Origin: Phycisphaerales bacterium
GTDB taxonomy: Bacteria > Planctomycetota > Phycisphaerae > Phycisphaerales > UBA1924
Direction of reading: 5' to 3'
Assembly: GCA_965228645.1 (NCBI GenBank)
Contig: OZ245827.1
Location: 372,001 to 436,000, forward strand
DNA length: 64,000 bases
Part shown: positions 12,001 through 18,000 of the stretch, piece by piece
Layout of the letters: each line of letters opens with the position of its first letter
Position numbering within the stretch: the stretch's first letter is position 1
Program-made: the position numbers

Positions 12001-15000
12001 TCGCTCGCGCCCGGGATGCGGGCGTGACGGTTCTGCTCTGCACGGGGCGGAACTTTGCCGAGAGTGTGTTCGCGGCCAAGGCTGTGGGCGTGACGGACCC
12101 GATGGTGACCGCGGGCGGCTCGATGGTGGTCGATCCGGGATCCGGGCAGACGCTGCACCGGTTTGCGATGCGTCTGCCGGTGGTTCAGGGCGTGGTCGAT
12201 GTGCTGCACCGGCGCGGGCACGCGGCCCTGGTGCTCAAGGACAGAGTGGCTTCGGGGTTTGATTACCTCGTGGTCACGGGCGAGGCGGGGCATCGGCTCC
12301 ACCCGGTGACGGAGTGGTGGCTCGAGCACATGCAGCTTGAGAGCCGGAACGTGACGACGCTCGACCACGACGCGCACCCGGAGTGGACGGTGCGCGTCGG
12401 CGCATGCGGGCCCTCGGCGTGGACGCTCCCGATGCGGGACGAGATCTTCGAACTCCTGGGCGAGCAGGTGACGCTGCACTCCTTCCCGGCGGTGACCTCC
12501 CGCGAGCATGTGCCGGGCCTGGAGGGCGAGTTTCATATTCTCGAGGCGTTCGATGCGCAGGCGCACAAGTGGGCGGGCATCTCCTGGGTCTGTGCGCAGC
12601 TGGGCATCGATCCGAAGCGCACGATGGCCATCGGCGACGAGGTCAACGACGTGACGATGGTCACGTCCGCGGGGCTCGGTGTGGCGATGGGCAACGCGAT
12701 CGAGTCGGTCAAGGCGGGCGCGAGGCACACCGTGGGCAAGAACCACGAAGCGGGTGTGGCCCAGGCGATCACCAACGTGCTCAATGGGGCCTGGTAGCGA
12801 TGCAGACACTCGCCCAGATCCGCACGATCCTGGATGAATGGGGGATCTCGCCCAAGCACAGGCTCGGGCAGAACTTTCTGGTCGACCAGAATCTGCTGAC
12901 GAAACTCGTGGACGTCTCGGGCGTCGGCGCGGGCGATGTCGTGCTCGAGGTGGGGCCTGGCACGGGGACGATGACCGAAGAGCTGCTGGACCGCGGGTGT
13001 GACGTGATCGCGTGCGAGCTGGACGCGGACATGGCTTCGATCCTGCGCGAACGTCTCGGGGCACGCCCGGGCTTTAAGCTGATCGAGGGCGATTGCCTGG
13101 AGTCAAAGCACGAGATCTCGCGCGAGGTGGTCCAGAAGCTGGACGGGCGTGTGTTCCGGCTCGTGGCGAACTTGCCCTACAGCGCCGCGACGCCCCTGAT
13201 CCTGGCGCTGCTGACGGACATGCCTGCGTGCGCGGGGCAGCATGTCACGATCCAGCGCGAGGTCGCGGATCGACTGATGGCCAAGCCCGGGAGCAAGACG
13301 TACGGCGTGATCTCGGTAGTGGCCCAGCTCTTTGCGGAGATCGAGCTGGTCGCCAAGCTGCCAAAGGAATGTTTCTGGCCCCAGCCCGAGATCACGAGCG
13401 CGATGGTTTCGATTGAGCCCAGAGTGTCGGTTGCAGGCGATATTGATCGCAAGTTGTTCGCACAGTTCTGTTTGAGGCTTCTTGGACAGCGCCGAAAGCA
13501 GCTCGGGAGCGTGCTGCGGGGCGAGGGAACGCTGCCAGGGGCGTTCGATGCGAAGCTGCGGGCAGAAACGCTGCCTCCCGAAGCGTTTTTGGATCTGTAT
13601 CGCTGGCACGTTGCGCGGTAGGATGTCACTGTTCGGTTGCGCGAGGCAGGAGGCTTCCAGCGGCATGATCAGCTCAGGCGGGCAAGCAGAGACGGGTGAC
13701 GATCCAGCGGCTCTGGCTCGGGCGCTCGAACCGGTGATCCGGGATTCCTGCGACGGGCGCCTCAGCGAGATCGAATGGTTCCGGGCGACCTGGCAGCGGG
13801 GCGGGGCGGCGACGGGTTACGCGAGCTGGCACGACGGCTCGTTCGATGTGCCCGTGATCGTCAAGATCCCTGTTGGCGCCAACGAGCTCAATTGGACGGT
13901 CCAACTGGGAGATCACGGGCTCGACCGGGATGTTGTGGTCGGGCAGACGCCTCATCCGACGCCTCGGGTGCTCGGCTCGGGCAGCGAGCTGGGCGGGCAC
14001 GATCTGGCCTGGCTGGTGATCGAGCGTCTCGAGGGCAAGCCCGTCGCCGGCGATCTGTCGGAGCGATCGCTCAACGGTCTGCTCTCGGCGGCGGTCGAAT
14101 TCCAGGCGCGAGCCGAGCGGAGCAGGGGCGCCTTCGGCAAGGCGCCGCCGACACCGGACTGGGAGAAAGCCCTGAGTGATTCTCGGCGCTGGGTGCGCGA
14201 CAACCACATTGAGAACGCGAGCCGATGGAAGACCGCGATCCAGGGCGTGCAGAAGCTGCTGCCAAGGCTGGTCGTGCGCTGGGAGCAGCGCCAGATCAAC
14301 GCGTGGTGTCACGGCGACCTTCATCCGGGCAATGTCATCCACATGCCCGCCGAGGACGGGCATCCCGATCGGTGCGTTCTGATCGACCTTGCTTTGACGC
14401 ACGCTGGACACTGGGTGGAGGATGCGGTGTACCTGGAGCATCTGTTCTGGGGCCACGAGGACAAGCTCTTTGGCATCAGGCCCGTCAAACAGATGCGCAG
14501 GCTGCGGAAAGAACGCGGTTTGCAGGTCGGTGAGGACGATTCAACGATCGCAGATATCAAGCGTTTGCTTGTGGCTGCGACCACGCCCAGCTTTTTGACA
14601 GTCGGTGGCGATGGTCGCCACGCTCACGGAGCGCTCGTGGTGTGCGAGGATTTGGTGCACCGGCTCAGCGGGGCCTGATAATAGGTTTTTGTTTGTATAT
14701 TCTCGATGGAGCTTGCCTGAGCGGCCCAGATCGGGAAGATATACCGCACGCCCGCAGGTCCTCTGTGGGGGAGCCGTGGGTTCTGGTGCTGTCTGAACAA
14801 TGTCCCGATTCCGAGAGGAGCGTCCGTCAATGGAGTCTTTCGAGAAGCTGAAGCAGATGGTGGTCATGGCCGAGGACGACATCTCGAAGGCCGAGGGCGG
14901 GAACAAAGCCGCGGGCACGCGAGCACGCAAGGCGTTGCAGGACATCCGCAACGCGGCGCAGGAGATCCGCAAGGAGATCCTGACGCTCCGTGACCAGGGC

Positions 15001-18000
15001 AACTGACCGCGACCGGGCAGATAAAGGGTTGGTGTGCTTCGCATGGGTGAAGTTGTTTCATCCGGATCGCCGTTGATCCTCGCCGATGCCGGCGCGGCTC
15101 TCTTTGACGTGCGCCAGATCGATGTTTCGGCGCGCGTCTGCGGCAAGGAGGGCATCCACGAGTGGATCCCTCATCGCGGAGACATGTCGCTTCTGGACGC
15201 GGTGGTCTACACAAGCCCCGGTTACAAAGAAGTGGTGGGCCTCAAGCAGGTCCGAGAGGGCGAGGTCTGGATCCCGGGGCACTTCCCGGATCTGCCCCTG
15301 CTCCCGGGCGTGTTCATGGTCGAGGCGGCGGCCCAGCTGATGTGCTGGATGTTCAACGTCCGGCGCGGTCAGTCCTCACCGGCGGCGTTCCTGCGCATCA
15401 CGGATTGCTCGTTTCGCAACAGCGTGACGGTGGGCGATGACCTTTACATCCTGACCAAGGAAGTGAAGTTCGGAGGTCGGGGCTATACCGCGGCGGTTCA
15501 GGGGATCATCGAGGGCAAGATCGCCTTCGAGGCTGAGCTCCGCGGGATGGTGCTTCCTGAGCGCAAAGCCAAGGACCTTGGGCTCTAGACCGGGTTCTTT
15601 GGTCTGAGCCCGGATCGACCGGGAGAACGGCCCGCGTGGGGAGGGTGAGCTGGACAACCCGGCTTGCGTGCCCCGGCGGACTGGATGAGGCGCTGCTCGC
15701 GTCGGTACCCGCCTCCCACGGGGTTGTGTGTGTTTCGGACACCAACGGCTCGGTGATCGGTCTGGCTTCGACCGGGGATATGCGCTCGTTCGTGGCGCAG
15801 CGCCTCGGGGCGATGGCTGAGGGCGCCAATGACATGCGCGGGGTCGCGGCACTGTGCGAGCTGGCGCCCGCGGGCTCGATGTTCGAGGGCGATCTCGTGT
15901 TCATGGACGCGGCCCTGGAGCGCGAGCCCGGGCTGCACGACCGTGTGACCCGCAAGCTGCGCGTCTGGTGGCTGGGCACGCAGACGGATGCGAGGCGGTT
16001 TGCCTGGCAATGGGAGACGGATCCGACTGAGTTTGCTCCCGGGTCTGAGGCGATCGGGCCGTTCCTCGACAAATCGGGCGCCAGGCGCCACGCGGAGCTG
16101 CTCGATGCGCAGTTCGAGCTGTGCCGATTCCCGGAAGAACTGCACAGAGCGCCGGCGGGCAAGGCCTGCGTGTACAAGCAGATGGGCAGGTGCCCGGCTG
16201 CGTGCGATGGGTCCGAGCCGACGGAAGCATTCGAGGCGAGGCTCAGAGAGGCGCTCACGTTCGATCGCGCAGGGGCAGAGGCCCGCCTTGCGCAGCTGGA
16301 TTCGGAGCTGCGGGAGGCGGCGAGCGAGCTTGCTTTCGAGCGGGCCGCGGAGATCCAGGGGCGGCGCGATGCGCTGGCCAGGGAGCTCAAGCGGGGGCTC
16401 TCTTCGGTGCGTCGGCTTGAGCGGGTGAAACAGATCGCGGTCGCTGCGAGCGGGGATCGGCGCTCTGTGACGGTGCTGGTGATCGATCGCGGGCGCTGGA
16501 CGCGTGTGGGCGGGCTCGCGATCGACGCGACACTCCGCGAGGCCGATGAGCTGCTGCAGAGGGCACTCGGGGCACTCGATCGGTTCTCAGGGGAAGCGGG
16601 CGTAGGGGACCTCGGCGTTCTGGGCGTGCTTTCGCGGGAATTGATGCGACCAAGCCGGGGTGGGCCGATGCTGTACGAGCCGGAGGCGGTTGACGGGGCC
16701 CTGCTGTTGCACGCGGCTGAGCGGGTGCTGAGAATCAGAGACCCGCGGGCGGACGCAGGCGCAGACCGGGGCGCACCAGGAGAGAAGAGCACCGATGAGT
16801 GAGCCCTACCCGCTTGTGTTCCAGCCGATGCTTCTTGAGAAGGTGTGGGGTGGTCGCCGACTCGAGGCGCTTGGCAAGCCGATCGAGGGCGACAAGCTGG
16901 TGGGTGAGAGCTGGGAAGTCGCGGATCTTGGCTCGACCTCCCAGAGCGGGGCCGGCGGCGGGGCGCGACGGTCGGTGATCGCCAACGGAGAGCTTGCGGG
17001 CAAAACGATCCAGGCTGCGATGCGCCATTGGGGCGAGGGCATGCTCGGGCGGACCAAGCCCGCGCCGGGAGGCGGGTTCCCGCTGCTGATCAAGTTCGTC
17101 GACGCCCGCCAGCATCTCTCGGTGCAGGTGCATCCGACGGCGGCATACTCGTCGGCGCACCCGGGCGCGGTTCTGAAGGCGGAATGCTGGTACGTGCTGG
17201 GCGCCGAAACGGGCGCACGGGGCGAGGAGCCGGTGATCTTCAAGGGCTTTCGCCCAGGCGTCACGATGGACGACTACCGCGAGGCGATCGCCCAGGGCAC
17301 GGTCCCCGAGCTGCTTTGCGCGGTGCCGGCGGTCCCTGGGGAGATGCACGACATCCCCAGCGGAACGATCCACGCGCTGGGCGCGGGCGTGCTGGTGGCG
17401 GAGATCCAGACGCCCAGCGATACGACGTTCCGGGTGTTCGACTGGATCCAACGGTACAACCGCCCGGCGCGCGAGCTGCACGTCCGCGAGGCGCTGGATT
17501 CGACGCTCTTTGAGGAGCCCCCTGCGGCTCGCGCCGTCACGGGCGACGGTGAGCTGGTCGTGAGCGAGCACTACCGTGTCCGCCAGCTGAGCGCTCACTG
17601 CGAGGAGAAGGCGGTCGCCGAGCCCGGTGTGTGCTCGGTTGTCATGGTGACGCAGACCATGGGCGCCTCGCTTGCGAGCAGGAGCAACGCGTTTCCAGAG
17701 ATCACGCTCGACGCGGGCAAGACCGTGCTCGTGCCAGCGGCGTGCGCGCACGACGCGGTGCTGCGGGGCGGGCCTGGGACGCGGGCGCTGGTGGTGGAGG
17801 CTGTCTAGCAGCCCGCGTTGTAGTTCGCCAGCCATGCGGTGAAATCCGCTGGCGTGCAGAGGGAGTCGGCGTTCTGATCGCAGTTGGGCGTGCCGGCGTT
17901 GAAGGCGGCGAGCCACGCGGTGAAGTCTGCGGGCGAGAGCGAGCCGTCGCCGTTGGTGTCCGCGGGGCAATCGGGTGTGTCGGGGATCGTGATGGGCACG

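Follow-up and report, generated by a model that had tools for sequence, protein, structure and literature searches.

The window analysed here is a 64,000-nt stretch of a Phycisphaerales contig (OZ245827.1, positions 372,001 to 436,000). One DNA sequencing run, which may be its source, covers the stretch without differences; three RNA runs, in which the organism was not present, gave 0 reads. The locus of interest contains the following features, in window coordinates:

13620..14678, forward strand: APH-family phosphotransferase (PF01636), an upstream neighbour in some relatives only
14713..14740, forward strand: putative sigma-70-type promoter, proposed from its pattern (TTGCCT, 16 nt, GAAGAT)
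14815..14820, forward strand: ribosome-binding site GAGGAG, 9 nt 5' of the ATG
14830..15006, forward strand: tail-less Hc1-family gene for a 58-aa protein, with a helical hairpin (helices 2-22 and 26-57) and an antiparallel homodimer predicted
15043..15588, forward strand: divergent FabA/FabZ-like 3-hydroxyacyl-ACP dehydratase (PF07977, 58.5 bits; NF000582, 79.3, cut-off 113)
15636..16802, forward strand: UvrC-like protein with a UVR motif, often present as the third gene of the cluster (59 bits against NCBIfam uvrC, under its cut-off)

The Hc1-family gene starts with ATG at 14830 and closes with a TGA that ends at 15006, and GGAG-like sites precede the start codon in most of its relatives. 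The product scores 74.2 bits against Pfam PF07432 (Hc1; cut-off 23.5) and aligns with positions 1-55 of a model that is only 57 positions long, so that the protein is essentially the whole domain. This confirms the survey's finding that the gene, g339, encodes a 58-aa protein made of the Hc1 N-terminal domain. Against the NCBIfam HctA model NF051889 it reaches 23.3 bits (positions 6-53 of 121), below the equivalog cut-off of 100, which eight of ten tested HctA-type proteins passed. Matches in the ESM Atlas were PF07432 clusters only, a PHROGs search gave nothing useful, and no solved homologue was found by sequence. The composition is nearly neutral, with 11 K/R, 10 D/E and a pI of 8.1. The short form had been presented as novel. 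This is unsupported: it equals the whole Pfam model, and NCBI already labels the protein 'histone H1 [Phycisphaerales bacterium]'. A short Hc1 form is also reported from jumbo 'moraphages' (PMC12619734). Our literature search, whose coverage mostly excluded subscription journals, found neither a publication on Hc1 in planctomycetes or Bacteroidota, though supplementary distribution tables may list it, nor any experimental work on a short member of the family.

In all 30 order loci (proteins of 56-66 aa) and all 20 class loci, a stop codon directly follows the domain, so the tail-less core described for Phycisphaerae is real. The tail is likewise absent from 80/80 viral (phage) loci, 80/80 genome loci and the 40 Bacteroidota loci fetched, whereas 100 of 104 closed HctA-type frames have one of at least 20 residues; Lys-rich tails were met only in the chlamydial HctA type. 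Among longer Hc1 forms of 143-2000 aa, a range that skips HctA lengths, none of 50 matches had a Lys-rich tail. Most of these 50 are single-member records and likely mis-assemblies. None of 28 representatives with at least 20 extra C-terminal residues reached a K/R share of 0.3. Tail-less is the usual form of the Hc1 family, and it is widespread in Bacteroidota and large phages.

The core is single-copy and occurs in 116 of 121 sampled genomes of the order Phycisphaerales (one of them, G105, unpublished) and in 71 of 81 of the class Phycisphaerae, of which it is a conserved gene, as the survey had stated. It was found in 20 of the 201 Planctomycetota genomes of the phylum sample; for order, class and phylum these new samples agree with the earlier counts. 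Only 10 of the 191 genomes from outside the class carry it, and therefore the suggested role in the condensed nucleoid of planctomycetes in general is unsupported. In Bacteroidota, the domain was present in 89 of 151 sampled genomes.

Other basic proteins are encoded elsewhere in the genome (contig coordinates):

35893-36603, forward strand: g36, 236 aa, Lys/Arg pentamer repeats, no Asp/Glu
332059-332412, reverse strand: g287, 117 aa, Lys/Arg pentamer repeats, no Asp/Glu
935956-936450: HU with an N-terminal Lys/Ala tail (PF00216)

The existence of g36 and g287 as Lys/Arg-repeat proteins, noted earlier, was thus confirmed. Both have a five-residue period, with autocorrelations at lag 5 of 0.68 and 0.56, respectively, compared with 0.02 for the one HctA-type tail tested. 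Against Pfam HC2 (PF07382, cut-off 40), g36 passes with 49.5 and g287 falls short with 20.4; both are below the NCBIfam cut-offs (NF038052, NF038053). g287 is a member of a real conserved family. Judged by search scores, g36 is poorly conserved, its matches being weak and confined to 8 of 41 family genomes. g287 and g36 likely belong to a separate Hc2/BpH1-like polycation family, apart from the Hc1 core.

The survey had combined these parts into a split Hc1 system, in which the core would be a hub recruiting g36 and g287 as tails in trans and condensing the nucleoid. Stand-alone repeat ORFs are indeed present in the order, in 18 of 41 genomes, as is the core; in the phylum sample, each of the ten genomes from the class has the core and some tail-like match; and chlamydiae pair a tailed Hc1 with the pentamer protein Hc2 (PMC2848022). 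However, only 1 of 89 core-bearing Bacteroidota genomes and none of ten core-bearing phage records (two of them at least 90% complete) had a match to the tail profile, which may overlook repeats with other wording. Among Planctomycetota outside the class, a match was found in 3 of 10 core-bearing and 48 of 181 core-less genomes (Fisher p 0.73, with kin not independent), and, of 22 loci taken from genomes without the core, 14 contained pure repeat ORFs. Moreover, the core gene is unlinked to the genes of g36 and g287, these proteins have no acidic or folded docking segment, and their period is unlike that of the HctA-type tail tested. As the core and the free repeat proteins do not co-occur, and the latter match the Hc2/BpH1 kind, which acts without an Hc1 core, the split system is unsupported. 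Such an arrangement is unlikely, and we give recruitment of these two proteins by the core very little credence.

The AlphaFold2 monomer model of the 58-aa protein is a helical hairpin with a pLDDT of 94.9. The homodimer model scored 0.66, compared with 0.00 for the best of three controls; of 30 solved homo-pairs, 20 come up to the mark used for this score, as does 1 of 23 single chains. At least 93% of contacts are shared between the dimer runs, with a partner pLDDT of at least 85, and residue 47 pairs with residues 33 and 37 in the partner. The predicted dimer fits the dimerisation role that has been published for the N-terminal domain of HctA (PMC2848022). Foldseek returned no match to the hairpin at E ≤ 0.001, and VIA-align found generic hairpins only (best Z 8.4, within background), so that no function follows from the fold. 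Across 335 cores, the surface positions that are conserved hold basic or small residues; the search patterns themselves account for part of the conservation of A28, R31 and R33. The median pI of the cores is 9.1-9.4.

We propose, with a probability of roughly 0.5, that the gene encodes a stand-alone short Hc1 that would form an antiparallel four-helix homodimer and likely bind nucleic acid, most likely DNA, without a separate tail, as a small housekeeping nucleoid-associated protein. Two hairpin monomers are predicted to pair in antiparallel fashion. The conserved K20, N25, K26, A27, A28, R31 and R33, at the start of helix 2, would then join R47 of the partner in a basic patch, and the dimer would have two such patches, placed symmetrically at its ends, that could contact the phosphate backbone. 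Chlamydiae may have added their Lys-rich tail onto a core of this kind. Binding to DNA is favoured by phage loci, where the core lies near replication or recombination genes in 17 of 80 cases and a fab gene in none. Speaking against it are the near-neutral charge of this copy and the low charge of the cores, the lipid enzyme as the steadiest bacterial neighbour, and the published assignment of HctA DNA binding to the Lys-rich tail and not to this domain (PMC2848022).

The fabZ-like gene, which scores under the NCBIfam FabZ cut-offs, starts 37 nt 3' of the Hc1 gene. It follows the core in 34/34 order loci and 19/20 other class loci, which upholds the fixed linkage reported before. The UvrC-like gene is part of 7 of the 20 class loci, and 9 of the 30 order loci have an APH-family gene upstream of the core. 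Of 55 Phycisphaerae loci, 32 have a sigma-70-type pattern in the 150 nt before the gene, where about 3 would be expected, the pattern having been drawn after inspection of 30 of the 55; of the unseen class loci, 7 of 20 match. A stock promoter scan did not report the promoter at 14713..14740. A shared constitutive promoter may account for the fabZ-like linkage. Alternatively, the position directly 5' of this gene throughout the class could indicate a lipid-synthesis accessory, which would tune fatty-acid synthesis by binding, through its basic patch, either acyl carrier protein or the FabZ-like enzyme. Partners of acyl carrier protein use basic patches, and an acyl-thioester enzyme, an acyltransferase of the BioF/Kbl/serine-palmitoyltransferase family, adjoins the core in 25 of 80 genome loci. 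Yet this acyltransferase is near the core in only 1 of 40 loci from an evenly drawn Bacteroidota sample, fabZ is absent from 11 other-Planctomycetota, 80 viral and 117 HctA-type loci, core residues are identical in all gene contexts, and the cluster often includes the UvrC-like gene too; we consider a lipid role improbable. A universal lipid-enzyme neighbour of the core was rejected on the same neighbour scans.

In phages, the 17 loci mentioned above have gp32 SSB, RecA, a 5'-3' exonuclease or ribonucleotide reductase within 3 kb of the core, and the core directly adjoins gp32 in all five gp32 loci scanned. An RNA-ligase-like gene is nearby in 15 further loci and a cold-shock gene in 4 of the 80; these are raw counts with no background rate for replication genes. 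In 35 of 80 loci, the core lies among genes of unknown function. The RNA-related neighbours would suit an RNA- or ribosome-binding factor, in which a four-helix dimer, presumably resembling Rop in architecture, sits on structured RNA and not on chromosomal DNA. HctA itself is reported to bind RNA and repress translation (PMC2848022). At the same time, DNA replication and recombination neighbours are equally frequent, and no ribosomal-protein gene was seen among the bacterial neighbours scanned, and we regard this factor as unlikely.

The low net charge of the cores would also agree with a protein-protein adaptor for a conserved machine, such as the replisome or RNA polymerase, making no direct contact with nucleic acid. 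The invariant small residues G24, A27 and A28 suit a tight protein interface, and large phages, which carry the core, often target host machines. On the other hand, no partner gene was found to travel with the core across Phycisphaerae, Bacteroidota and phages, and the polar positions that are conserved hold only basic residues or Asn. An adaptor thus appears to us a rather improbable solution.

The Phycisphaerae core is 44-45% identical to Bacteroidota and phage copies and 30% identical to HctA, and its median net charge is +2, compared with +6 in HctA. In the free tree, Planctomycetota cores are apart from the chlamydial type (support 99/97, with long branches meeting there), and the tree constrained to a PVC clade is 16.9 log units worse (AU p 0.195). 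A PVC clade of the cores is thus not favoured by the sequences, nor is it statistically rejected. A special chlamydial link, or a pre-chlamydial form, does not emerge from these comparisons; along with the split system, this means that the survey's reading was mostly not upheld.

If the short form does bind DNA, it would be a new bacterial chromatin protein, present in Phycisphaerae, in more than half of the Bacteroidota sampled and in many large phages, and the standard view of HctA, with one domain for pairing and a tail for binding, would need revision. For the condensed nucleoid of planctomycetes, the pentamer protein matters more, as it and not the Hc1 core is found across the phylum. Taken together, one may tentatively imagine the tail-less dimer as an overlooked nucleoid-associated protein of Phycisphaerae, most Bacteroidota and large phages, its 'dimerisation-only' domain binding DNA, and next to it a separate, phylum-wide, unannotated Hc2-like KKATR-repeat polycation helping to condense the nucleoid, so that Phycisphaerae would have come to a pair of proteins that parallels chlamydial Hc1 plus Hc2. 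We hold this broader picture to be possible rather than probable.

Compared with known systems, the short Phycisphaerae core shares with HctA a homologous N-terminal domain with the GNKAA.xRxR motif, and its predicted dimer has a counterpart in the HctA N-terminus, described as dimeric (PMC2848022). Unlike HctA, it has no Lys-rich tail, and its helix 2 is of another type; HctA is further characterised by DNA binding and condensation and by expression late in development. The short form is common to the 58-aa protein, Bacteroidota, other Planctomycetota and phages, while the fixed place before a fabZ-like gene and the near-universal single copy set the Phycisphaerae core apart from other PF07432 members. 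Similar to the pentamer proteins Hc2/HctB and BpH1, g36 and g287 are stand-alone, free of acidic residues and variable in length, and have two or three basic residues in each five-residue period; unlike the curated Hc2/BpH1 members, they score below the cut-offs in all but one case (g36 in Pfam), and the likeness may be compositional convergence. Divergent HU proteins are published candidates for nucleoid condensation in Gemmata (PMC3440768), and the tailed HU of the present genome, unrelated to the Hc1 core, is a competing candidate for condensation.

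The Hc1 gene that the survey had reported as conserved is real, and it comes from a common yet uncharacterised family of short proteins. Its locus contains the following features.

14830-15006 (+): short Hc1-family open reading frame, 58 residues (open frame and PF07432 match)
9 nt upstream of this frame (+): GAGGAG ribosome-binding site (sequence)
starting 37 nt past the Hc1 gene, downstream: FabA/FabZ-like gene (profile match)
next after the FabA/FabZ-like gene, downstream: UvrC-like gene (profile match)

The protein matches the Pfam Hc1 model (PF07432, just 57 positions long) at 74.2 bits over model positions 1-55. 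Its NCBIfam HctA score is 23.3 bits where the cut-off is 100, and this match is confined to the first half of the HctA model. By these profile scores, it belongs to PF07432 but not to HctA. Several close relatives already carry the NCBI label 'histone H1 [Phycisphaerales bacterium]'. The domain was found by profile search in 116 of 121 genomes of the order (one unpublished genome row, G105, included), with a single match per genome. It is present in 71 of 81 genomes of the class, with only 1 of 9 in one family, and in 20 of 201 genomes of the phylum, where the 191 from outside the class account for just 10.

A fabZ-like gene follows Hc1 at all 34 order loci and at 19 of 20 other class loci. 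A promoter-like pattern, defined post hoc after viewing 30 of 55 loci, lies within 150 nt upstream of Hc1 at 32 of the 55 (∼3 expected), including 7 of 20 class loci unseen when it was defined. Given this pattern and the downstream fabZ-like gene across the class, Hc1 likely heads its own housekeeping transcript from a putative promoter. The linkage would also suit a lipid accessory, a role we consider quite improbable, as no fabZ-like gene lies beside Hc1 at 11 loci from Planctomycetota outside the class, and a BioF/Kbl/SPT-family acyltransferase (below all cut-offs), present at 25 of 80 selected genome loci, occurs at 1 of 40 loci drawn evenly from Bacteroidota. Elsewhere in the genome, a second fab cluster (L460:1491-2901) reads in translation as dehydratase-like, ACP-like and dehydratase-like; the genome thus has at least three dehydratase-like genes, counting the Hc1-linked one. 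Three single-member protein records (P0271, P0273, P0275) hold Hc1 and FabA domains in a single frame, possibly by sequence-error read-through.

The tail-less protein is the usual form of the Hc1 family. In an even sample, 89 of 151 Bacteroidota genomes had the domain, and the 40 loci fetched, of 101 matches, code for proteins of 58-72 residues without a Lys-rich tail. A search of one eighth of the genome collection gave 562 confirmed matches; the best 80 were all short and, by title, mostly from Bacteroidota, Balneolaceae and Rhodothermales. A relative is encoded in 242 stretches of viral contigs, and all 80 fetched were short. The HctA-type set, defined by motif and not by taxon, comprises 117 metagenome loci fetched with what we take to be the chlamydial motif. 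Here, 100 of 104 closed frames have a tail of at least 20 residues, 97 of these tails contain at least 30% Lys+Arg, and 8 of 10 proteins tested pass the HctA cut-off. One 63-aa HctA-type protein (L226:1422-1610) lacks a tail, yet its HctA score of 100.6 reaches the cut-off. Moreover, one Pedobacter genome (G313, locus L166) has four Hc1-domain copies, compared with one in Phycisphaerae; P0284 (285 aa; 57 members, 134 contigs), with its Hc1 domain at the C-terminus, may be a genuine fusion; and two sequences (P0293, P0311) look eukaryotic (Gln-rich extension; possible intron). PF07432 in jumbo phages has already been published (PMC12619734), and a 2006 paper regarded Hc1 as restricted to Chlamydiales (PMC1403754). 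Our literature searches, covering mainly open-licence papers, turned up no account of Hc1 in either Planctomycetota or Bacteroidota.

The AlphaFold2 model is a helical hairpin (helices 2-22 and 26-57, pLDDT 94.9), for which fold searches returned generic hairpins only. The two-copy prediction scored 0.66 versus 0.00 for the best control, with contact agreement between runs of at least 93% and partner pLDDT of at least 85. Among the calibration cases, 20 of 30 solved homo-pairs attained the mark, as did 1 of 23 single chains. The predicted contacts are antiparallel, placing R47 beside R33 and Q37 of the partner chain. Residues D17, K20, G24, N25, K26, A27, A28, R31, R33, A43 and R47 are kept in at least 75% of all cores, a conservation partly built in by our own search patterns.

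At roughly even odds, we favour a stand-alone dimer with predicted nucleic-acid binding: two chains would pair without a separate tail, and the conserved basic ends would contact nucleic acid. We rank it above RNA binding, lipid accessory, protein adaptor and split system, because phage neighbours include DNA and RNA genes and bacterial neighbours vary by lineage, being fabZ-like in Phycisphaerae. In particular, phage Hc1 lies within 3 kb of gp32, RecA, 5'-3' exonuclease or ribonucleotide reductase genes at 17 of 80 loci (13 of 55 distinct proteins) and near an RNA-ligase-like gene at 15 of 80, both as raw counts; at 35 of 80 it lies inside a cluster of unknown genes. The ligase neighbours would also fit RNA binding as the main role, which seems unlikely to us, and we give little credence to a protein adaptor. 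A fixed cluster of small unknown genes (∼155, 75 and 70 aa) surrounds phage Hc1 at L052, L056, L093 and 32 other viral loci. Against the favoured dimer count the weak net charge of the core and the assignment of HctA DNA binding to the tail (PMC2848022). The gene, family and distribution are firm; the dimer is predicted and its binding proposed.

The survey had further proposed that the core acts with free tails, the repeat proteins g36 and g287. Both are as described (236 and 117 aa) and lack acidic residues. Of 41 order genomes, 18 encode stand-alone g287 relatives, which have ribosome-binding sites, and 21 have a match of any kind. A tail profile built from 16 such proteins, which may miss repeats worded differently, matched 61 of 201 Planctomycetota genomes, many weaker matches being Lys-rich parts of longer proteins. 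Core and some tail match do coincide in 10 of 10 class genomes of the phylum sample. Still, such a split system is very unlikely: outside the class, tail matches occur in 3 of 10 core-bearing and 48 of 181 core-less Planctomycetota (p 0.73; kin not independent), and 22 of the 30 best Planctomycetota tail loci come from core-less genomes, 14 of the 22 with pure repeat frames (9 closed, 5 interrupted by the contig end). The profile matched 3 of the 151 Bacteroidota genomes, just 1 of them among the 89 core-bearing ones, and none of 10 phage records with a core, of which 2 are at least 90% complete. In addition, g36 and g287 share a five-residue period, absent from the single HctA-type tail tested, that fits proteins acting apart from the Hc1 core; g36 passes Pfam HC2. 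Free-standing pentamer proteins of the KKATR type, 50-140 aa long (g287 at L002:3060-3413; L415-L444), occur across Planctomycetota, including core-less genomes. As a nucleoid-condensation candidate, this phylum-wide protein is a better lead to follow than the Hc1 core. Three order genomes (L377, L383, L385) encode a Lys-rich head with a short conserved, folded-looking C-terminal segment.

The suggestion of a pre-chlamydial form did not hold up. Among 335 distinct cores, those of Phycisphaerae are nearer the main Bacteroidota type (44% identity) and phages (45%) than the HctA type (30%). An unrooted tree (82 sampled rows, 56 columns) has two sides with support 99/97: the HctA type with a second Bacteroidota type (10 rows), and Planctomycetota with the main Bacteroidota type and phages. 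It came with a warning that long branches meet. Constraining Planctomycetota (outlier L047 left out) with the HctA type was 16.9 log units worse, but the AU test did not reject it (p 0.195). The distribution is more simply explained by an ancestor without a tail, but the tree has no root, and no evidence marks Phycisphaerae out as the pre-chlamydial form.

Two further proteins of the genome have tails of their own.

contig 935956-936450 (L458:957-1451; -): HU-family protein, N-terminal Lys/Ala-rich tail (profile match)
contig 914646-915686 (L459:647-1687; -): DksA/TraR-like protein, Lys-rich N-terminal region (Lys/Ala tail; profile match)

HU variants are published nucleoid-condensation candidates in Gemmata (PMC3440768), and the DksA/TraR-like protein is arranged as reported for Streptomyces DdbA (PMC3643593). 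Both g36 and g287 fit what is described for chlamydial Hc2 and Bordetella BpH1, pentamer-period proteins reported as separate and without an Hc1 core (PMC2848022). Unlike the HctA type, the Phycisphaerae protein has no Lys-rich tail; its predicted dimer agrees with the role in dimerisation reported for the HctA N-terminus (PMC2848022).
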